A stretch of DNA of 31,814 bases, from UHGV virus genome UHGV-0219172; one strand, written 5' to 3'. The DNA comes from a virus. The notes below the pieces were generated by a model. The model ran no database searches. It saw only the letters and a program-made list of their open reading frames with translations, and was not told where the DNA came from. The position numbers were made by a program, and so were the translations under genes. Positions 3,449 to 31,814 of this stretch are shown here, in pieces. How positions within the stretch are numbered: position 1 is the stretch's first letter; every line of letters begins with the position of its first letter.

Positions 3449-3673
3449 ATGCATACAGTTTCTGAAAATCAGTGCGGTAAATACGCATTACTGCTGCAAC
3501 AGGCCAGAACCGAAGCACAGGCCGACGCTGCGACGCGCTTTTCTTCTCATCTTGATGCCATGATTCGCCACATCACAAAGGCGGAGTTATCCCGCGTGGA
3601 GATAGTCGAGCTGCTCAGTCAGGAGTCGGAAAAATTTCACAATATCGGATTGTCTCGCGGGGAGGTGCTTTGA
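3449..3673 (+). CDS. early operon small protein (P2 orf80-like)
   Basis: 74-aa ORF with GGAG SD, in the conserved P2 early-operon position. Confidence 0.6.
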
Positions 3674-6632: not shown

Positions 6633-6735
6633 TGATTTAATGAAATTTCGGAGTCATAAATATTGTGTATTTAACTAGATGATTGCAATATAAGTGCTTA
6701 TTATTTATGCGATTATAGCCATAACGGAGCTGAGT

Positions 6736-7665
6736 ATGAGTGTTGCAAGGCATCATCATTTTTTATCCCAATGTTATTTGAAAGGGTTTACAAGTAATGG
6801 GGGGAAAAAATCAAAATTAACTGTAATAGATTTAAAGGAGCGCAAAACCTTTGAGAGTAATACTCGCAATGTCGGGGGGGTTAGAGATTTCAACCGATTA
6901 GAATTGGATGGAGTTGACCCAAACTATCTCGAGAGTTCTCTTGCAGAGTTTGAAGGCAGTGTAGCTACTCATTTAAGAAAACTTGAGGAGGGGGGCGAGT
7001 TTTCAGGCGAAACCAAAGATGTTATTCTGGAGTTTATTTCCTTATTGGCAATACGTACGCCTGCTCAGCGAGAACATTTATCATCTCCATTGAAACAAAT
7101 AGCAAAGTTTATCATGAAATCCTCAGTTAGTTCGGCTGAGCGTTGGGACGATTGCAAATTAGCTTATGAGAAAGAAATGGGTGAGTCTTTGCCATATGAT
7201 CTCGCTTACGAAAAAATTAAAAATTTTGTGGATGGGGATAATTTCGAAATCAATGTAATCAGAGAGTTCATGATAGATATGGAAATGAAATGTGTACCTG
7301 TTATCACCAAGTTGTTGCATCAACGCAACTGGTCACTTATGACCATATCTGATGGGCAAGGGTCATTTATAACTTCAGATAACCCAGTTTGCTTAATGTG
7401 GACTAATCCTGAATTAGCACGAGGCCCTTATTCCCCCGGGTTTGGTGTAAAAGACACTTTAGTTTTGTTCCCAGTATCAAAAAACCTTCTTTTGGCGGGC
7501 GAGTTTGATGGTCATGAGGGTGTATTCAGTTGTAATGAGGAGCAGGCTGCGGTCTTCAATACTTCAGTCATTCGGCATACCGCAGAAAGAATATTTTCAT
7601 CTAATGATAATTTCAAATTTTTAGACTCATCTAAAAAAATGAAGCAAGGCAAAAGCCTGGTTTGA
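6736..7665 (+). CDS. cargo gene at the A-cos (tin/old) position: DUF4238-like protein, candidate single-gene anti-phage defence
   Basis: ATG 6736 with GGAG SD (6726-6729). The track start at 6694 is GTG. N-terminus HHFLSQCYLKGF and internal ITSDNPV resemble recalled DUF4238 signatures. Visibly AT-rich relative to the flanking phage genes. Confidence 0.55.
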   Translation: MSVARHHHFLSQCYLKGFTSNGGKKSKLTVIDLKERKTFESNTRNVGGVRDFNRLELDGVDPNYLESSLAEFEGSVATHLRKLEEGGEFSGETKDVILEFISLLAIRTPAQREHLSSPLKQIAKFIMKSSVSSAERWDDCKLAYEKEMGESLPYDLAYEKIKNFVDGDNFEINVIREFMIDMEMKCVPVITKLLHQRNWSLMTISDGQGSFITSDNPVCLMWTNPELARGPYSPGFGVKDTLVLFPVSKNLLLAGEFDGHEGVFSCNEEQAAVFNTSVIRHTAERIFSSNDNFKFLDSSKKMKQGKSLV

Positions 7666-17453: not shown

Positions 17454-18197
17454 TTATCTGGTTAAATAAGTGAGCTCACTCTCTTTAGGTATTAGCTGAG
17501 TGTCTCCTCCCCATTCGTTCATGATGTTTTTTCTCGCATTCCAGTATTCTTGGTAAGTATCTTGATGAACAGTGTAGATACTTGCTAAAAGCCAGTGTTG
17601 ATACTTAAGAGTCGTGTATTGGTATTCTTCTATTATCGGTAAAATGAATAAGTTTTTTTGCTTTAGTGAGATTAAATATTCTTTTGTTTGTTTGGTGGTT
17701 CTGTCATTGTTTAAGATTCTTTCAATCTTAAATGAAAAGCCGTGCATGTTTATATTTCTTTGGAGGTGCATGAATGATGATATTGATGGGGCGATCATGT
17801 TTTGATGCGTCAGGATGTTTCTTAAATCCTCCATTAATTTTATTACTGGATTATTTCGGAATTCATGATTGATGAATGCCTCTGATTTGATTTTAATGTC
17901 GGCAATATTTAATGCTTTTGTTTTAAGTAGGTTGCGCGTTGAATCTCTAAATGATAATGCTGAAGATATATAATTGAAAAGGTGTCTTGATATGTTTAAA
18001 TGTTCTTTTTTAAATTTGTCTCTGTTAAATGAATGACGGGAAACAATGTCAGGGGAGTTGAATTTGCTTAATTCATGTTGGACAACTTCGTAATTGGCAA
18101 TATGCATATGTCCAAGTAAATTGGTGTCGGAGATTTTTAAATACTCTTGGTGGGCGATGGTGTCTTTTTGATTTTCCCAGATTTGATATTTATCCAT
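17454..18197 (-). CDS. cargo gene at the S-V (P2 orf30) position: 247-aa protein of unknown family with two RNxxxH motifs, candidate HEPN-like defence/abortive-infection protein
   Basis: Antisense to the late operon, with its own SD (AAGGAA upstream of the minus-strand ATG). Visibly AT-rich. Motifs LRNILTH (R126 to H131) and QRNINMH (R147 to H152) fit the HEPN Rx4-6H pattern. I recognise no family. Confidence 0.5.
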   Translation of the reverse strand: MDKYQIWENQKDTIAHQEYLKISDTNLLGHMHIANYEVVQHELSKFNSPDIVSRHSFNRDKFKKEHLNISRHLFNYISSALSFRDSTRNLLKTKALNIADIKIKSEAFINHEFRNNPVIKLMEDLRNILTHQNMIAPSISSFMHLQRNINMHGFSFKIERILNNDRTTKQTKEYLISLKQKNLFILPIIEEYQYTTLKYQHWLLASIYTVHQDTYQEYWNARKNIMNEWGGDTQLIPKESELTYLTR

Positions 18198-18280: not shown

Positions 18281-18916
18281 ATGAGCACATTATCAAATAT
18301 TCAGGAACTCGCGCGCGCACTGCGCAACATGATACGCACCGGCATTGTCGTCGAAACCGACCTTAACGCCGGTCGCTGCCGTGTGCAGACCGGCGGCATG
18401 TGCACCGACTGGCTTCAGTGGCTGACCCATCGCGCCGGGCGTTCGCGCACATGGTGGGCACCTTCCGTGGGGGAACAGGTGCTGATTCTGGCCGTGGGCG
18501 GTGAACTCGACACGGCGTTCGTTCTGCCGGGGATTTATTCCGGCGATAACCCCGCGCCGTCTGCGTCGGCGGATGCCCTGCATATCCGTTTCCCTGACGG
18601 GGCGGTGATTGAATATGAACCCGAAACCAGTGCACTTACGGTAAGCGGAATTAAAACGGCCAGCGTGACGGCCTCTGATTCTGTTACTGCCACGGTGCCG
18701 GTGGTCATGGTGAAAGCATCAACCCGCGTCACCCTGGACACACCGGAGGTGGTCTGCACCAACAGGCTGATTACCGGCACGCTGGAAGTGCAGAAGGGCG
18801 GGACGATGCGCGGCAACATTGAACATACCGGCGGTGAACTCTCATCAAACGGTAAGGTACTGCATACCCATAAACACCCCGGCGACAGCGGCGGCACAAC
18901 CGGGAGTCCTTTATGA
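18281..18916 (+). CDS. V: baseplate spike/assembly protein V
   Basis: Starts MSTLSNIQELARALRNMIRTG; the track ORF extends upstream to 18212. Confidence 0.9.
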   Translation: MSTLSNIQELARALRNMIRTGIVVETDLNAGRCRVQTGGMCTDWLQWLTHRAGRSRTWWAPSVGEQVLILAVGGELDTAFVLPGIYSGDNPAPSASADALHIRFPDGAVIEYEPETSALTVSGIKTASVTASDSVTATVPVVMVKASTRVTLDTPEVVCTNRLITGTLEVQKGGTMRGNIEHTGGELSSNGKVLHTHKHPGDSGGTTGSPL

Positions 18917-19260
18917 CAGCGCGTTATCTCGGAATGAATCGCAGTGATGGCCTGACTGTCACTGACCTTGAGCATATCAGCCAGAGTATCGGCGATATCC
19001 TGCGTACACCGGTCGGCTCACGGGTGATGCGTCGTGATTACGGCTCGTTGCTGGCATCAATGATTGACCAGCCGCAGACCCCGGCGCTTGAGTTGCAGAT
19101 TAAGGTCGCCTGTTACATGGCGGTGCTGAAATGGGAACCCCGCGTCACCCTGTCATCCGTCACCACGGCGCGCAGCTTTGACGGGCGAATGACGGTCACG
19201 TTAACCGGCCAGCACAACGATACCGGCCAGCCACTTTCGTTAACCATCCCTGTGAGTTGA
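18913..19260 (+). CDS. W: baseplate protein W
   Basis: 115-aa ORF overlapping the V stop. Confidence 0.9.
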   Translation: MTARYLGMNRSDGLTVTDLEHISQSIGDILRTPVGSRVMRRDYGSLLASMIDQPQTPALELQIKVACYMAVLKWEPRVTLSSVTTARSFDGRMTVTLTGQHNDTGQPLSLTIPVS

Positions 19261-19264
19261 AACC

Positions 19265-20173
19265 ATGCCGATTATCGACCTGAACCAGCTACCCGCACCG
19301 GATGTGGTCGAGGAGCTGGACTTTGAAATCATTCTCGCTGAACGCAAGGCGACACTGATTTCCCTTTACCCGGAAGACCAGCAGGAGGCGGTCGCCCGTA
19401 CCCTGACGCTGGAATCTGAGCCTCTCGTCAAACTGCTGGAGGAAAATGCTTATCGTGAGCTTATCTGGCGTCAGCGTGTGAATGAGGCTGCGCGGGCGGT
19501 GATGCTGGCCTGTGCCGCCGGTAATGACCTTGATGTGATTGGTGCCAATTACAACACCACGCGCCTGACTATCACCCCGGCAGATGATTCGACCATCCCG
19601 CCGACACCGGCAGTGATGGAGTCTGACACCGATTATCGTCTGCGTATTCAGCAGGCGTTTGAGGGCTTAAGCGTCGCCGGGTCGGTGGGAGCCTATCAGT
19701 ATCATGGTCGCAGTGCCGACGGGCGTGTCGCGGATATCTCTGTCACCAGTCCGTCTCCGGCCTGCGTCACTATCTCCGTGCTGTCTCGCGAAAATAACGG
19801 TGTCGCATCCGAAGACCTGCTGGCGGTGGTGCGCAACGCCCTGAATGGTGAGGACGTCAGGCCGGTGGCCGACCGCGTGACCGTGCAGTCTGCCGCCATC
19901 GTTGAATACCAGATAAACGCCACGCTTTACCTTTACCCTGGTCCCGAAAGCGAACCCATCCGCGCTGCTGCCGTGAAAAAACTGGAAGCGTACATCACGG
20001 CACAGCACCGGCTGGGGCGCGACATCCGTCTGTCTGCTATTTATGCCGCTTTGCATGTGGAAGGCGTGCAGCGTGTCGAGCTGGCTGCACCACTGGCCGA
20101 CATTGTGCTCAACAGTACGCAGGCGTCTTTCTGCACCGAATACCGCGTCGTGACCGGAGGCTCGGATGAGTGA
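19265..20173 (+). CDS. J: baseplate protein J
   Basis: 302-aa ORF in the conserved V-W-J-I order. Confidence 0.9.
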   Translation: MPIIDLNQLPAPDVVEELDFEIILAERKATLISLYPEDQQEAVARTLTLESEPLVKLLEENAYRELIWRQRVNEAARAVMLACAAGNDLDVIGANYNTTRLTITPADDSTIPPTPAVMESDTDYRLRIQQAFEGLSVAGSVGAYQYHGRSADGRVADISVTSPSPACVTISVLSRENNGVASEDLLAVVRNALNGEDVRPVADRVTVQSAAIVEYQINATLYLYPGPESEPIRAAAVKKLEAYITAQHRLGRDIRLSAIYAALHVEGVQRVELAAPLADIVLNSTQASFCTEYRVVTGGSDE

Positions 20174-20696
20174 TTCGCGCCTGCTGCCGACCGGCTCATC
20201 ACCGCTTGAAGTCGCCGCCGCAAAAGCCTGTGCGGAAATTGAAAAAACGCCGGTCAGTATTCGTGAACTGTGGAACCCGGACACCTGTCCGGCAAATCTG
20301 CTGCCGTGGCTGGCGTGGGCGTTTTCGGTCGACAGGTGGGATGAAAAGTGGCCGGAAGCGACAAAACGCGCCGTTATCCGCGATGCCTATTTCATCCACT
20401 GTCATAAGGGCACGATAGGTGCAATCCGGCGTGTGGTGGAGCCGCTGGGCTATCTCATCAACGTGACGGAGTGGTGGGAAACCAGTGACCCGCCGGGCAC
20501 CTTCCGGCTTGATATTGGTGTACTGGAAAGTGGCATCACAGAGGCAATGTATCAGGAAATGGAACGGCTGATTGCTGATGCCAAACCTGCAAGCCGTCAC
20601 CTTATTGGCCTGAACATTACCCGGGACATTCCCGGCTACCTGTTCGCCGGTGGTGTGGCTTACGACGGCGATGTAATTACGGTTTACCCCGGATAA
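20166..20696 (+). CDS. I: baseplate/tail protein I
   Basis: 176-aa ORF overlapping the J stop. Confidence 0.9.
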   Translation: MSDSRLLPTGSSPLEVAAAKACAEIEKTPVSIRELWNPDTCPANLLPWLAWAFSVDRWDEKWPEATKRAVIRDAYFIHCHKGTIGAIRRVVEPLGYLINVTEWWETSDPPGTFRLDIGVLESGITEAMYQEMERLIADAKPASRHLIGLNITRDIPGYLFAGGVAYDGDVITVYPG

Positions 20697-20706
20697 GTGA
20701 GGAATA

Positions 20707-22635
20707 ATGAGCACAAAATTCAGAACCGTTATCACCACTGCCGGTGCAGCAAAGCTGGCAGCGGCAACCGCGCCTGGAGGGCGGAAGGTCAACATTACCA
20801 CGATGGCCGTCGGGGATGGCGGTGGTAAATTGCCTGTCCCGGATGCCGGACAGACCGGGCTTATCCATGAAGTCTGGCGACATGCGCTGAACAAAATCAG
20901 CCAGGACAAACGAAACAGTAATTATATTATCGCAGAGCTGGTTATTCCGCCGGAGGTGGGCGGTTTCTGGATGCGTGAGCTTGGCCTGTACGATGATGCG
21001 GGAACATTAATTGCCGTGGCGAACATGGCCGAAAGTTATAAGCCAGCTCTTGCCGAAGGCTCAGGGCGTTCGCAGACCTGTCGCATGGTCATCATCGTCA
21101 GCAGTGTGGCCTCAGTGGCGCTGACCATTGACACCACAACGGTGATGGCGACGCAGGATTACGTTGATGACAAAATTGCAGAGCATGAACAGTCACGACG
21201 TCACCCGGACGCCTCGCTGACCGCAAAAGGTTTTACTCAGTTAAGCAGTGCGATCAACAGCACGTCTGAAACACTGGCCGCAACGCCGAAAGCGGTAAAG
21301 GCCGCGTATGATCTTGCTAACGGGAAATACACTGCGCAGGATGCCACCACAGCGCGAAAAGGCCTTGTCCAGCTCAGTAGCGCCACCAACAGCACGTCTG
21401 AAACGCTCGCCGCAACACCAAAAGCGGTAAAGGCAGCATATGACCTTGCTAACGGGAAATACACTGCACAGGACGCCACCACAGCGCGAAAAGGTCTTGT
21501 CCAGCTCAGTAGCGCCACCAACAGCGATTCTGAAACGCTTGCAGCAACGCCAAAGGCGGTTAAGACAGCGTATGACCTTGCTAACGGGAAATACACTGCG
21601 CAGGATGCCACCACGGCGCGAAAAGGCCTTGTCCAGCTCAGTAGCGCCACCAACAGTGATTCTGAAACGCTGGCCGCAACACCAAAAGCAGTGAAGTCTG
21701 CCTATGACAATGCTGAAAAACGTCTTCAGAAAGATCAGAACGGTGCGGATATTCCGGGAAAGGATACCTTCACGAAAAATATCGGTGCCTGTCGTGCTTA
21801 TAGCGGCGCTTTGAGCACTGAAGCCGGAAACTGGACAACCGCTCAGTTTATTGAATGGCTGGATTCCCGTGGTGCATTTAATCATCCGTACTGGATGTGC
21901 AAATGTTCATGGTCATACGGCAATAATAAAATTATTACCGATACTGGCTGTGGAACTATTCATCTTGCAGGTTGCGTTATTGAGGTTATGGGTAATAAAG
22001 GTGCCATGACCATCCGTGTAACAACACCAAGCACTTCCACCGGAGGCGGCACCACTAACGCTCAATTCACTTATATTAATCATGGTGATGCTTATGCTCC
22101 TGGCTGGCGACGAGACTACAACACGAAAAACCAGCAGCCTGCATTTGCTTTAGGGAAAACAGGAAGCACTGTCGGAAATGATAAAGCTGTTGGCTGGAAC
22201 TGGAATAGCGGGGTCTATCAAGCAAATATTGGTGGCGCATCGACATTAATCCTCCATTTCAATATGAGCGAGGGGAGTTGCCCTGCCGTACAGTTCCGTG
22301 TGAATTATAAGAACGGCGGTATTTATTATCGTTCAGCGCGTGATGGTTATGGATTTGAGGCTGACTGGTCAGAGTTTTACACCACAACCCGCAAACCCTC
22401 TGCGGGAGATGTTGGTGCATATACCAAAGATGAATCGGATTCTCGCTATGTACGAGATATTCGCCTGGGCACACGTGTTGTTCAGACTATGCAAAAAGGT
22501 GTGATGTATGAGAAAGCAGGGCACGTAATTACCGGGCTTGGTATTGTCGGTGAAGTCGATGGTGATGACCCCGCAGTATTCAGACCAATACAAAAATACA
22601 TCAATGGAACATGGTATAACGTCGCACAGGTGTAA
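20707..22635 (+). CDS. H: tail fiber protein H with internal 44-aa tandem repeats and a lower-GC C-terminal domain
   Basis: 642-aa ORF after I. N-terminus conserved P2-like; the C-terminal third is visibly more AT-rich. Confidence 0.85.
   Translation: MSTKFRTVITTAGAAKLAAATAPGGRKVNITTMAVGDGGGKLPVPDAGQTGLIHEVWRHALNKISQDKRNSNYIIAELVIPPEVGGFWMRELGLYDDAGTLIAVANMAESYKPALAEGSGRSQTCRMVIIVSSVASVALTIDTTTVMATQDYVDDKIAEHEQSRRHPDASLTAKGFTQLSSAINSTSETLAATPKAVKAAYDLANGKYTAQDATTARKGLVQLSSATNSTSETLAATPKAVKAAYDLANGKYTAQDATTARKGLVQLSSATNSDSETLAATPKAVKTAYDLANGKYTAQDATTARKGLVQLSSATNSDSETLAATPKAVKSAYDNAEKRLQKDQNGADIPGKDTFTKNIGACRAYSGALSTEAGNWTTAQFIEWLDSRGAFNHPYWMCKCSWSYGNNKIITDTGCGTIHLAGCVIEVMGNKGAMTIRVTTPSTSTGGGTTNAQFTYINHGDAYAPGWRRDYNTKNQQPAFALGKTGSTVGNDKAVGWNWNSGVYQANIGGASTLILHFNMSEGSCPAVQFRVNYKNGGIYYRSARDGYGFEADWSEFYTTTRKPSAGDVGAYTKDESDSRYVRDIRLGTRVVQTMQKGVMYEKAGHVITGLGIVGEVDGDDPAVFRPIQKYINGTWYNVAQV
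21229..21709 (+). repeat. in-frame 132-bp tandem repeat, about 3.6 copies, inside tail fiber gene H
   Basis: Units begin at 21229, 21361, 21493 and 21625, each encoding G(L/F)(V/T)QLSSA(T/I)NS(T/D)SETLAATPKAVK(A/T/S)AYDLANGKYTAQDATTARK. Confidence 0.9.
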
Positions 22636-22638
22636 TTT

Positions 22639-23166
22639 ATGCAGCATTTAAAAAATATTATTGCGGGTAATCCAAAAACTGTTGCCCAATATCAACTGAC
22701 AAAAAATTTTGATGTTATCTGGTTATGGTCCGAAGAGGGAAAAAACTGGTATGAGGAAGTAAGTAATTTTCAGGAGGACACGATAAAGATTGTTTACGAC
22801 GAGAATAATATAATTGTCGGCATCACCAGAGATGCTTCAACGCTTAACCCTGAAGGTTTTAGCGTTGTCGAGGTTCCTGATATTACCGCCAACCGACGTG
22901 CTGATGACTCAGGTAAATGGATGTTTAAGGATGGTGCCGTGATTAAGCGGATTTATACGGCAGACGAACAGCAACAACAGGCCGAATCACAAAAGGCCGC
23001 GTTACTTTCCGAAGCGGAAAGCGTTATCCAGCCGCTGGAACGCACCGTCAGGCTGAATATGGCGACGGATGAGGAGCGCGCACGACTGGAGTCATGGGAA
23101 CGCTACAGCGTTCTGGTCAGCCGTGTGGATCCTGCAAATCCTGAATGGCCGGAAATACCGCAATAA
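22639..23166 (+). CDS. G: tail fiber assembly chaperone
   Basis: 175-aa ORF immediately after H, with lower GC like the H C-terminus. Confidence 0.8.
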
Positions 23167-23456
23167 GTTGTATGATATCTGGAGTGAGCTAACGTATCTA
23201 TGGCACAGAGTAAAACTTAATCTGACAGTCTGCTCTGTACCAAAAGCGGAACTTGCTTACATCGTGCTATGTTAGTTTGCTGGGAGCAGGTCATTATCTA
23301 CGTGATTGCTATTTTATAACTTGGATAAAATGAGGGATGAACATAATATCGAGACAGTGATTGCAGAGTTAGTCATTATAGGCGGGCATCAGTTCATGCC
23401 GGATCTCTAATGCAATTATCAGGAAAATATGGGACGTTTTATCAATCAGAGGAAAT

Positions 23457-24683
23457 ATGTTACAGTTCAGCTTTGTATCAAATGACGTTGTTATGACTTA
23501 CGACGGTGACAGCGGAGAACAAATAATTTGGGTTTGGGAGAGTTTAAATAAATTTCAAACAGTATGCATTTCACGAATTTTTAACTTTCAACTCCAGGAC
23601 TTGAGAAACCCACCGTCAACCGTTCAGGATTTTAATGATTACGAATATTCCTTTAATTTTGGCACGCTTAATAATGAATACATAACAGTTCCGGGACGGA
23701 TTCTAAGCATTAATCGAGATGTCCTTATACATAAGTCCATCAAGCTTGAAAGGAAAGTATTTGCGTCAGAACGCAACGTCTCCATTTTTGGTCGGCTTTC
23801 AAAACTACTCGATCACACTAATCCCATCATCATCGGAGGAGATAAGCCGGAAGCTATACCAAAAAGCGTATTCCAGGAGTTGCAAAGTAAATTCCACAAC
23901 ACAGGGGAACTGGATCGCTATGCTAATGCAAGGGTTCACGCTATTCTCGCAGGTTATCTTGATGGTATGAAAGATGCTCGCGAACGGTATGAACATTACC
24001 TAAACAGAAAAACAGTGATCAGAAAAACCGACAAACTGGATTTAGAAGTTTTAAATAAGCTCGAAATTGAGAAATATACACTCATAAGAGACATTATCCA
24101 GGATGCGTTGAATAACAAAACTAACTTGTCTGAAGATGACTGGCAGAGCCTGATGATACCCTTCATCACATTACTTTTTCCAAAATATATCAAGGTCCTC
24201 GAGAAGGTTAAAATTTTCGACTATTACTCTAATCCTTCGGCTAAAACAAATCGGTTTATAGACATTGCACTGGTGGATGCAAACGGCAACCTTGATATCA
24301 TCGAAGTCAAAAAGCCGTTTGATGATAAGATCCTTCGCAAGACGCCCTATCGCGATAACTATATTCCTACATCAGAACTTAGCGGCGGTATTATGCAGGC
24401 TGAAAAGTATATTTTTCATTTATCTAAATGGGGTGTTAAGGGTGAAAAAGAGCTTACGAATGCCTACAAGAATTCTCTGCCAGCGGGAATGTGTATTCGT
24501 ATATCTAACCCAAAAGCCATCATCATTGTCGGACGCGATCAGATAGCGAACGGTAACATGACCGACGGTCAGTTGCTTGATTTTGAGATAATCAAACGTA
24601 AGTACGCCAACATGATAGACATATTGACGTACGACGACCTGTTGCGTCGACTTAATAATACGATTGAAGCATTGAAAGGTTGA
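23457..24683 (+). CDS. cargo gene at the G-FI (Z/fun) position: 408-aa protein with a C-terminal PD-(D/E)xK nuclease-like core, possibly Shedu (DUF4263)-like; candidate anti-phage defence
   Basis: ATG 23457 with GAGG SD. Visibly AT-rich, flanked by about 290 bp of non-coding DNA on each side. C-terminal region FIDIALVDANGNLDIIEVKKP ... QAEKY gives D269/D280, E283-x-K285 and Q314...Y318, a restriction-endonuclease-fold pattern. Confidence 0.5.
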   Translation: MLQFSFVSNDVVMTYDGDSGEQIIWVWESLNKFQTVCISRIFNFQLQDLRNPPSTVQDFNDYEYSFNFGTLNNEYITVPGRILSINRDVLIHKSIKLERKVFASERNVSIFGRLSKLLDHTNPIIIGGDKPEAIPKSVFQELQSKFHNTGELDRYANARVHAILAGYLDGMKDARERYEHYLNRKTVIRKTDKLDLEVLNKLEIEKYTLIRDIIQDALNNKTNLSEDDWQSLMIPFITLLFPKYIKVLEKVKIFDYYSNPSAKTNRFIDIALVDANGNLDIIEVKKPFDDKILRKTPYRDNYIPTSELSGGIMQAEKYIFHLSKWGVKGEKELTNAYKNSLPAGMCIRISNPKAIIIVGRDQIANGNMTDGQLLDFEIIKRKYANMIDILTYDDLLRRLNNTIEALKG

Positions 24684-24752: not shown

Positions 24753-24776
24753 GTCTGCTTTTGGCTCAAAGCAGAC
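24753..24776 (+). terminator. hairpin, candidate terminator of the cargo gene
   Basis: 9-bp stem GTCTGCTTT / AAAGCAGAC with a 6-nt loop, about 70 bp after the stop, followed by T-rich sequence. Confidence 0.45.
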
Positions 24777-24844
24777 TGTCTGATTTGATAGCTTTTGGGC
24801 TATGTAAATTGTCAGTTGAAAAATGAGTGAGTACAAATCAGGAC

Positions 24845-24872
24845 GGGCGGGCGAGTTGCCCGCCTTTTCTTT
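24845..24872 (+). terminator. rho-independent terminator upstream of the FI late promoter region
   Basis: GC stem GGCGGGC (24846-24852) and GCCCGCC (24858-24864), loop GAGTT, then TTTTCTTT. Confidence 0.6.
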
Positions 24873-31674: not shown

Positions 31675-31701
31675 AAAAAATAAGCCCGTGTAAGGGAGAT
31701 T
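31675..31701. repeat. attR core: second copy of the 27-bp att direct repeat
   Basis: Identical to 783-809. Confidence 0.85.
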
Positions 31702-31814
31702 ACACAGGCTAAGGAGGTGGTTCCTGGTACAGCTAGCATTTTATGGGTTATGTTTTTCAGCGAAACGGATGATAACCTTAATAAATGCAGCTGTATGTGA
31801 TCGGTTTCTAAGAA

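Follow-up and report, generated by a model that had tools for sequence, protein, structure and literature searches.

The H-G Locus

The window analyzed here is a 31,814-nucleotide stretch of viral DNA (UHGV virus genome UHGV-0219172). Judged by its sequence, the region under study, made up of the distal part of the tail-fiber gene H and the tail-fiber assembly gene G, serves as the host-range module in a P2-like (Peduovirus) prophage (Table 1). An earlier note on this DNA had given the two genes this role, and their homology to the fiber and chaperone genes of phages P2 and Mu bears it out. Gene H encodes 642 residues, and its stop codon ends at 22635. Gene G, encoding 175 residues, starts with an ATG at 22639 on the same strand, directly downstream.

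Table 1. Features of the H-G region (positions in the window)
Feature	Coordinates	Strand	Description
H 5' part	20707..21224	+	P2-type N-terminal tail-collar fiber domain (residues 1-151) plus linker by homology; GC 0.560, as in the backbone
Tandem array	21225..21714	+	132-nt (44-residue) unit, 'phage tail fibre repeat', forming the shaft; GC 0.541
H distal body, residues 337-577	21715..22437	+	Mu S' (G(-), gp52) type; GC 0.465, GC3 0.402
H tip, final 65 residues and stop codon	22438..22635	+	P2 H / Mu S type, not S' type; GC 0.455
G 5' two-thirds, N-terminal domain	22639..22983	+	Most AT-rich stretch; GC 0.409
G 3' third, helical C-terminal domain	22984..23166	+	G/U type, not U' type; GC 0.557
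Conserved flank 3' of G	23167..23254	+	Left inverted-repeat arm at its end; right-hand limit of the P2-like stretch

Upstream of H, an open reading frame matches PF09684 (Tail_P2_I). The N-terminal domain of H matches PF12571 (residues 1-151, E 2.4e-58, Pfam), a domain whose role is baseplate attachment. The shaft matches PF03406 in four stretches (E 5.4e-81, Pfam). Tandem Repeats Finder places the array at 21255-21708, with a period of 132, 3.4 copies, and 89% matches, and a direct-repeat search returns the same 132-nt spacing. At the protein level, H possesses four such repeats versus two in P2 H; the extra ones are visible in BLASTP as residues 256-339 of H aligning back onto residues 168-251 of P2 H. 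The body can be divided into two or more sub-modules (approximately residues 337-480 and 483-577), and the second of these matches gp37_C (Pfam). The tip is the presumed chaperone docking region. G matches PF02413 (Caudo_TAP; E 2.2e-35, Pfam) and phrog_136 (E 2.6e-79). Separate sub-stretches of H, and of G, are matched by separate PHROG families, and those of H by separate phages as well; in G, phrog_24494 spans residues 1-93 and phrog_3792 spans residues 101-175. A passage in PMC9608196, citing North et al. 2019, assigns fiber binding to the N-terminal domain of the tail-fiber assembly protein and trimerization to the C-terminal domain.

The variable cargo begins to the right of the conserved flank. 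A 32-nt inverted repeat, with arms at 23219-23250 and 24754-24785, the left one starting 53 nt after G, brackets the neighboring Shedu gene and not the fiber genes. The left arm is kept in phage 12474III and in IMG/VR loci. Rfam reports no structured RNA in the region; a CyaR match near the opposite end of the window is its sole hit.

Base Composition and Codon Usage

To quantify composition, 366 in-frame windows of 300 nt from 20 backbone late genes served as the reference. These genes have a GC content of 0.564 (sd 0.032, minimum 0.470) and a GC3 of 0.651 (sd 0.065); only 0.5% of the reference windows fall at or below 0.48 GC, and none falls at or below 0.46 GC3. From 21715 to 22983, GC is 0.41-0.47 and GC3 is about 0.40, with z between -3 and -5. 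GC3 is 0.379 in the H tip (22438-22635) and 0.400 in the 5' part of G (22639-22983), where GC2 is 0.322 versus 0.433 in the backbone. Over the interval that the earlier note had singled out as AT-rich, 21850-23166, GC is 0.458 (z -3.3) and GC3 is 0.415 (z -3.6). The GC drop at distal H and G is thus real and far beyond chance, and composition is plainly non-uniform. The limits of the drop differ from those first proposed at both ends. By maximum likelihood, the change point falls at 21678-21685, with a log-likelihood gain of 37.7 nats. This is some 170 nt before 21850, and it coincides with the end of the 132-nt tandem repeats and with the start of similarity to Mu S'. Nor is all of G AT-rich: its last 183 nt are at backbone level (Table 1).

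Codon choice departs as well. Measured against backbone usage, synonymous codon choice has z of -5.7 to -6.8 in the H body, the H tip, and the 5' part of G. For comparison, z is -0.2 to +1.3 in V, J, I, and FI, all four being members of the reference set. The N-terminal half of H is also flagged by this test (z -5.1). Thus, atypical codon usage spans all of H and reaches beyond the low-GC module.

Analogous drops exist in other phages. P2 itself has a GC of 0.477 in distal H and 0.388 in the 5' part of G. The modules of Mu, SfMu, P88, and the P1-like JL22 are equally low in GC, and the backbones that carry them range from 0.49 to 0.585. Across carriers, the N-domain of G has a GC of 0.39-0.41 and its C-domain has a GC of 0.53-0.56. 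Low GC shared by the P2, Mu, SfMu, P88, and P1-like modules marks a common pool of fiber genes and not a recent swap, and so its use as evidence for a swap, as first suggested, falls away. More generally, a GC dip where a P2-type tail operon ends is the usual mark of the shared pool of fiber modules and no evidence of recent exchange.

A Composite of P2-Type and Mu-Type Parts

Over 78% of its first 25 kb, the window is 96.8% identical to P2. Specifically, 18281-21432, from V through the N-terminus of H (to residue 245), has 97% DNA identity, and H residues 1-245 have 95% protein identity to P2 H. The body, residues 337-577, is only 27% identical to P2 H and gives no blastn match to P2. The blastn match restarts exactly at 22438, with the tip, which is 82% identical to P2 H in protein. 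G is 93% identical to P2 G (91% over residues 1-115 and 95% at the C-terminus). By alignment, then, the difference in kind from P2 is limited to H 337-577, which is of the Mu S' type, and to two extra repeats; the C-terminus of H is not orthologous to P2 H throughout. The earlier claim of a swapped receptor-binding domain with its cognate chaperone is right only in part: the H body has been exchanged, and the chaperone has not, given that both G and the tip are P2-like. DNA identity over the tip and G (through 23254) is nevertheless 86% versus 97% for the backbone, and therefore this stretch, too, has a history apart from the P2 backbone.

Segment identities computed across 11 fiber/chaperone pairs locate the Mu relatives of each part. 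Distal H (residues 334-640) matches PDB 8JU3 (Mu S/S') with an E-value of 1.5e-157, query residues 5-311 falling on residues 177-486 of the chain. The body has about 85% protein identity to Mu S'v, and at this identity to a solved structure, its fold is settled. At the DNA level, the match to Mu S'v drops to only 75%, which shows that Mu itself was not the donor. The tip is 58% identical to the Mu S tip and 42% identical to the Mu S' tip, and it matches residues 436-503 of PDB 5YVQ_A. G matches PDB 5YVQ_B (Mu U, TfaMu) over residues 1-175 (E 1.2e-103, about 91% identity), and its C-domain is 92% identical to that of Mu U and 32% identical to that of Mu U'.

From its homology to the solved Mu G(-) fiber, H 337-577 probably carries receptor (LPS) specificity. 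A tail-fiber chaperone is itself reportedly able to bind cell surfaces (North and Davidson 2021); given this, the tip and G may also contribute. The prediction for the window prophage is a Mu G(-)-like, LPS-core-dependent host range, unlike that of P2.

Occurrence and Assortment in Other Genomes

The same H and G, of 642 and 175 residues, exist in the Escherichia phages vB_EcoM-12474II-V (Peduovirus; MK907236-9), which are 95.6% identical in DNA to the window over 20707-23254. These phages carry the same hybrid of S' body, P2-type tip, and G-type chaperone. They differ from the window in divergent patches at about 22100-22320 (86-91%) and 22950-23170 (81%), and in the cargo after G, which is a SMEK-domain protein in 12474II-V versus Shedu in the window. 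MC1061 and a derivative of E. coli C support plaque formation by phage 12474V; W3110, JM109, DH5alpha, and ATCC 11303 do not (PMC6834657). Viability of the 12474 phages suggests that a fiber of the window's H/G type is functional. The same gene pair is also present in two IMG/VR contigs.

In E. coli, the body, tip, and start of G occur together in about 40 of 5,426 complete genomes. In many others, the match is confined to 21727-22424 or to 22438-22760. Indeed, the body (21727-22424) and the tip with G (22438 onward) are found apart in other E. coli prophages and in P1-like plasmids, among which the breakpoint at about 22425-22438 recurs. An IMG/VR panel of 71 loci divides into 56 with an S' tip and a U'-type chaperone, 11 with a P2-type tip and a G-type chaperone, and four with a P2-type tip and a chimeric chaperone. 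Tip type tracks the first 55 chaperone residues in 70 of the 71 loci, which is not proof of co-adaptation because the two pieces are adjacent and the loci are not independent. Covariation of tip type with the chaperone C-domain was considered and rejected: in L022, L024, L025, and L029, the tip is P2-type but the chaperone C-domain is U'-type, the C-terminal domain of G having been exchanged independently in each. A GTDB genome scan with distal H returned four partial relatives only, too thin a set for mapping a donor lineage.

A Fixed Module

Several searches bear on whether the module can switch. With Mu Gin as the query, tblastn finds no homolog in the whole window (best E-value 1.7). No gix-like site lies within seven substitutions of Mu gix on either strand of the whole window. 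Searches with distal H, G, Mu S'v, Sv, and U' (tblastn) recover a single H and a single G, and no second fiber/chaperone pair. A repeat search finds no inverted repeat flanking distal H and G. As the window lacks an invertase, a gix-like site, and an inverted second pair, the host-range module is fixed and not switchable, as the earlier note had proposed. An invertible segment was thus rejected, as was a diversity-generating retroelement, no pair of variable and template repeats being present. Direct repeats of at least 14 nt inside H are limited to the in-frame 132-nt shaft units, none of which pairs with the 3' end of H.

Origin of the Module

We propose, with a probability of roughly 0.85, that H and G are a patchwork drawn from a shared, reshuffled, low-GC pool of fiber genes, and that the module is fixed. 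H combines four parts: a P2-type N-terminal domain, a four-repeat shaft, a Mu S'-type body, and a tip that resembles those of P2 H and Mu S. Its chaperone, G, is the ortholog of P2 G and Mu U. Extrapolating from published studies of Mu, G would bind the fiber tip through its AT-rich N-terminal domain and drive trimerization through its GC-rich helical C-terminal domain. Low GC and GC3 would be a standing property of the pool, which P2-, Mu-, P88-, and P1-like phages would hold in common, and homologous recombination at conserved linkers would reshuffle the pieces. Candidate linkers are, on the upstream side, the fiber repeat and the 'NGADIP' motif; further on, the boundary of body and tip (about 22425-22438); and, within G, the stretch that joins its two domains. 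The module is hard-wired: no invertase is present, and the window lacks the segment that in Mu contains the gix crossover site.

Could a single event instead have replaced P2's genes with one foreign cassette, a receptor-binding domain together with its own chaperone, leaving low GC as the scar of import? The lower DNA identity of the tip and G to P2, relative to the 97% that extends from V to the N-terminus of H, fits such an event. So does the Mu-like Yersinia phage vB_YpM_6, which matches 21727 to 22958 unbroken at 84.8% and thereby makes conceivable a donor in which the body, tip, and G N-domain were already together. However, the tip and G remain close in protein to P2's own, P2 has the same GC drop, and the body is found apart from the tip and G in many genomes, with the recurrent break described above. 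Moreover, in Mu, SfMu, P88, and JL22 an S'-type body goes with a U'-type chaperone and not with one of the G/U type, and some prophages combine a different body with a tip, G, and Shedu shared with the window at 98%. We therefore regard a single import as improbable. Somewhat less so, and still unlikely, is the idea that low GC reflects functional constraint, either through amino-acid composition or through slow translation that aids folding of the trimeric fiber, in which case it would be uninformative about separate evolutionary origin. All carrier phages keep this composition, and its changes coincide with the limits of protein domains, as in the N- and C-domains of G, and the low GC2 in the 5' part of G likewise points to constraint. 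Yet synonymous sites show the largest drop (GC3 0.38-0.40 versus 0.65), and synonymous choice departs even when the amino acids are given. In addition, the same modules reside in unrelated phage backbones, in which horizontal exchange is directly seen.

A further possibility concerns history and is compatible with the shared-pool explanation: the module could be a decayed invertible segment of the Mu/P1 type, which has an invertase, gix, and two fiber ends, now frozen in the S' orientation. The route would be a deletion between two 'NGADIP' motifs and loss of the second pair. Consistent with this, the window's Mu Sc-like sequence 'AVK.A.DNA..RL.KD.NGADIP' abuts the S'v sequence 'GKDTFTKNIGACRAYS', and in Mu these two stretches are 33 residues apart with gix between them. 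P2 H keeps a gix-like relic with three mismatches (L001:3624), and the same hybrid fiber lies beside a Gin homolog in L023, L024, and L029. Against it, the window harbors no remnant of a second fiber or chaperone anywhere, Mu is set aside as the donor by its distance in DNA, and the comparison gives no direction, as an invertible form could equally come from a fixed one. We consider such decay rather doubtful as the actual history, while noting that a deletion from one duplicated 'NGADIP' motif to the other may have removed gix and thereby converted an invertible form into the fixed one.

Under the shared-pool reading, the locus is of an already known and ordinary kind, the fixed host-range module of a P2-like prophage, and its practical value is small. 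The exchange points at about 21700, 22430, and 22980 are possible natural junctions for retargeting P2- or Mu-based particles. A more specific notion, which we put forward tentatively and at somewhat less than even odds, is that this natural chimera reveals how the chaperone is chosen. Provided that the chimera folds, which the viability of the 12474 phages suggests, the last 65 fiber residues and roughly the first 55-105 chaperone residues alone would set chaperone choice, and the body and the chaperone C-domain would be freely exchangeable. If so, these residues would constitute a minimal and portable unit for docking the chaperone, of use in the retargeting of P2-based particles.

Comparison with Known Systems

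One close reference is P2 (NC_001895), in which gpH and gpG occupy the same place in the V-W-J-I-H-G late operon as H and G in the window. P2 H has 669 residues versus the window's 642. Residues 252-604 of P2 H are of the Mu S (G(+)) type and include the gix-like relic, whereas the window has an S'-type body that lacks any such site.

Mu provides two points of comparison. From its G(-) orientation, S' (gp52) and U' (gp51) offer a body like that of the window, but a tip and a chaperone C-domain that are unlike. From its G(+) orientation, S and U offer the reverse: the chaperone and tip resemble those of the window, and the S body is unrelated (25% identity). The Mu S' gene is located inside the invertible G segment beside gin, while the window's H is fixed.

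Finally, SfMu, P88 (Xuanwuvirus), and the P1-like JL22 possess S'-type bodies that are 83-88% identical to the window's. In these phages, an adjacent DNA invertase and an opposed second fiber/chaperone pair accompany the fiber, and the window has neither. Their S' body is joined to an S' tip and a U' chaperone; in the window, by contrast, the S' body is joined to a P2-type tip and a G-type chaperone.

Fiber and Chaperone Compared with P2 and Mu

Judged by its sequence, the window is a P2-like prophage, its first 25 kb matching phage P2 at 96.8% identity across 78%. In the tail-fiber gene H, Pfam finds an N-terminal tail-collar domain of P2 type, four fiber repeats, and a weak gp37_C match, and it places the adjoining chaperone gene G in the tail-fiber assembly family. 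After G come, in ORF order, a low-GC insert and then FI and FII. The 132-nt shaft copies are 85–86% identical among themselves in DNA, and fiber length should vary with their number.

In DNA, 18281–21432 is 97% identical to P2, 21432–22437 has no P2 match beyond the repeats, and the match resumes at 86% over 22438–23254. At the protein level, residues 1–245 of H are 95% identical to P2 H, residues 256–339 constitute two additional 44-residue repeat copies, residues 340–577 are unrelated to P2 H, and the final 65 share 82% identity with it; for G, identity to its P2 counterpart is 93%. Solved Mu structures are matched by H 334–640 (G(-) fiber S/S', 8JU3; E 1.5e-157), the H tip (S, 5YVQ_A), and G (chaperone U, 5YVQ_B; E 1.2e-103). 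By segment, the body is 85% identical to S'v, the variable part of the Mu G(-) fiber; the tip is 82% identical to the P2 tip and 42% to the S' tip; and the chaperone C-domain is 32% identical to U', the G(-) chaperone, and 92–95% to U and G. Compared with P2, the swap is thus limited to the body, with a longer shaft in addition, and leaves the chaperone out. On these alignments, the pair reads as a hybrid in which a body of S' type meets a P2-type tip and a G-type chaperone. The earlier note had described a fixed host-range module comprising a swapped receptor-binding domain and its cognate chaperone. The host-range assignment stands, and the swap holds for the body but neither for the tip nor for the chaperone.

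Features of the window and of comparison loci
Feature	Position	Strand	Details
DUF4238 protein	6694–7665	+	323 residues, low GC; PADLOC DUF4238-Pers, 725 bits
ORF between S and V	17454–18197	-	247 residues; GC 0.31–0.34
H	20707–22635		642 residues; ORF order V, W, J, I, H, G
Fiber shaft repeats	21225–21714		four copies of a 44-residue (132-nt) unit; P2 has two
H body	21715–22437		residues 337–577
H tip	22438–22635		last 65 residues
G	22639–23166		175 residues; next ORF after H
Inverted repeat	23219–23250 / 24754–24785		32 nt; 27/32 bases complementary
Shedu SduA nuclease (predicted)	23457–24683	+	408 residues; PADLOC SduA, 722 bits; Pfam SduA_C, E 3.4e-33
Conserved terminator	24845–24865		right of Shedu gene
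CyaR/RyeE small RNA gene	31678–31763	-	Rfam, 100.7 bits
gix relic in P2 H	L001 (P2) 3624–3649		TTATCGAATATCTCGGTTTACAGGAA; 3 mismatches to Mu gix
Chimeric chaperone loci	L022, L024, L025, L029 (IMG/VR)		about 55 first residues G-like; middle and C-terminal domain U'-like

Base Composition

The 20 backbone late genes, sampled in 366 in-frame windows of 300 nt, have a GC of 0.564 (sd 0.032) and a GC3 of 0.651 (sd 0.065), with 0.5% of windows at GC 0.48 or less. By comparison, GC is 0.465 in the H body, 0.455 in the H tip, and 0.409 in the 5' part of G (22639–22983). GC3 is 0.38–0.40 in all three (z -3 to -5), and synonymous codon choice, amino acids given, departs from backbone usage at z -5.7 to -6.8. 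The GC drop claimed for distal H and G is therefore real, but its proposed limits, 21850–23166, need revision: the best single change point is 21678 (log-likelihood gain 37.7 nats), about 170 nt earlier, and G is not AT-rich throughout, as had been stated, because its last 183 nt have GC 0.557.

The same compositions recur in other carriers, whose backbones range from GC 0.49 to 0.585. Specifically, GC is 0.477 in P2 distal H and 0.388 in the 5' part of P2 G; in Mu, it is 0.450 in Sv (the variable part of the G(+) fiber), 0.473 in S'v, and 0.391 in the 5' part of U. Modules of SfMu, P88, and the P1-like JL22 fall within this range, and the G/U 3' domain has GC 0.53–0.56 wherever present. Low GC is a property of the fiber-module pool, not the mark of a particular swap in the window, as had been supposed.

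Assortment of Modules

Among 5,426 complete E. coli genomes, body, tip, and start of G occur together in 40 at a coverage of at least 80%. Many other matches, P1-like plasmids among them, are confined to 21727–22424, and still more to 22438–22760. Prophages that agree with the window at 97.9% over tip, G, and Shedu gene differ in the body, the similarity breaking off at 22438 or 22577. Separate halves of the H body are matched by different phages, and separate sub-stretches of H, and of G, by different PHROG families. The closest phage, 12474III (one of Escherichia phages vB_EcoM-12474II-V), is otherwise 97–100% identical to the window, broken by 81–91% patches at about 22100–22320 and 22950–23170, which suggest small recombination tracts within the H body and G C-domain. 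Fiber modules, as these matches indicate, assort independently.

In 56 of 71 IMG/VR loci with complete fiber and chaperone, the S' tip is accompanied by a U'-type chaperone. A P2-type tip goes with a G-type chaperone in 11, and in the other 4 an S'-type body bears a P2-type tip and is followed by a chimeric chaperone (first 55 residues G-like, rest U'-like); two of these four, L024 and L029, adjoin a Gin homolog. The first 55 chaperone residues follow tip type in 70 of the 71 loci; the C-domain does not. This pattern fits a published model that assigns fiber binding to the chaperone N-domain and trimerization to the C-domain (as summarized in a passage of PMC9608196 citing North et al. 2019). 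It could also come from adjacency and shared ancestry and is not proof of co-adaptation.

A Fixed Module and Its Neighbors

That the module is fixed, lacking an invertase, is confirmed: the best match to Mu Gin in the window has an E-value of 1.7, no site lies within 7 substitutions of Mu gix, and distal H and G are each present once. P2 H retains a gix relic, TTATCGAATATCTCGGTTTACAGGAA, exactly at the start of its similarity to Mu Sv; 12474III, like the window, has none.

The low-GC insert occupies the P2 "Z/fun" hot spot between G and FI, where P2 has fun(Z) and the window a Shedu SduA gene. The inverted repeat flanks this variable cargo. In 12474III and several IMG/VR loci, both arms are again present, around cargo of differing lengths (1352, 1503, and 1665 nt); in P2, the search recovered the right arm only, the left being recognizable by eye in the aligned flank. 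When the two flanks are joined in silico, they fold into a single extended hairpin (-50 kcal/mol). Neither of the two P2 hot-spot papers searched uses the term "inverted repeat." Given that the Shedu gene shares the late operon's strand and that the terminator lies to its right, late-operon read-through into it is possible. The DUF4238 gene follows gene A, where P2 has old/tin; a DUF4238 protein from this hot spot was reported to protect against T7 (PMC9122126). The very AT-rich ORF between S and V lies at the position of P2 orf30, on the opposite strand; Pfam and PADLOC gave no match, and phrog_12680 (function unknown) is its sole match. Finally, the CyaR/RyeE gene lies just beyond the ogr end of the prophage, and the window therefore probably extends into host DNA at the attachment site.

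Host Range and Relation to Known Systems

The vB_EcoM-12474II-V phages carry the hybrid H and G at 95.6% DNA identity. Mu particles of G(-) type adsorb to E. coli C and are not known to adsorb to K-12, and MC1061 has galU, truncating the LPS core. Phage 12474V plaques on DSM 12242 and MC1061 and does not plate on W3110, JM109, DH5alpha, or ATCC 11303 (PMC6834657 Table 2, a paper in which the tail fiber goes unmentioned); DSM 12242 derives from E. coli strain C, according to a passage of PMC6753275. If the points on Mu G(-) and galU hold, the plating would agree, circumstantially and by analogy with Mu, with S'-type, LPS-core-dependent specificity.

A 1992 title (Haggard-Ljungquist et al., cited in PMC13100340) concerns the horizontal exchange of fiber genes of P2, Mu, P1, and lambda, and structures of both Mu fibers and TfaMu are solved. 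GenBank phages already include this exact gene pair, as do RefSeq E. coli genomes, where strain 20A24 has it at 98.5% identity, and two IMG/VR contigs, which match at 100%. The module is thus an unremarkable example of a familiar type, and its one slightly new aspect is that an S' body is joined to a P2-type tip and served by a G-type chaperone. The homologous S' body of SfMu, P88, and JL22 is part of a segment adjoining an invertase, whereas the window has no invertase; either form, invertible or fixed, may have come first. The window's junction resembles the Mu S' fiber minus the 33 residues separating two "NGADIP" motifs, the stretch that in Mu holds gix.
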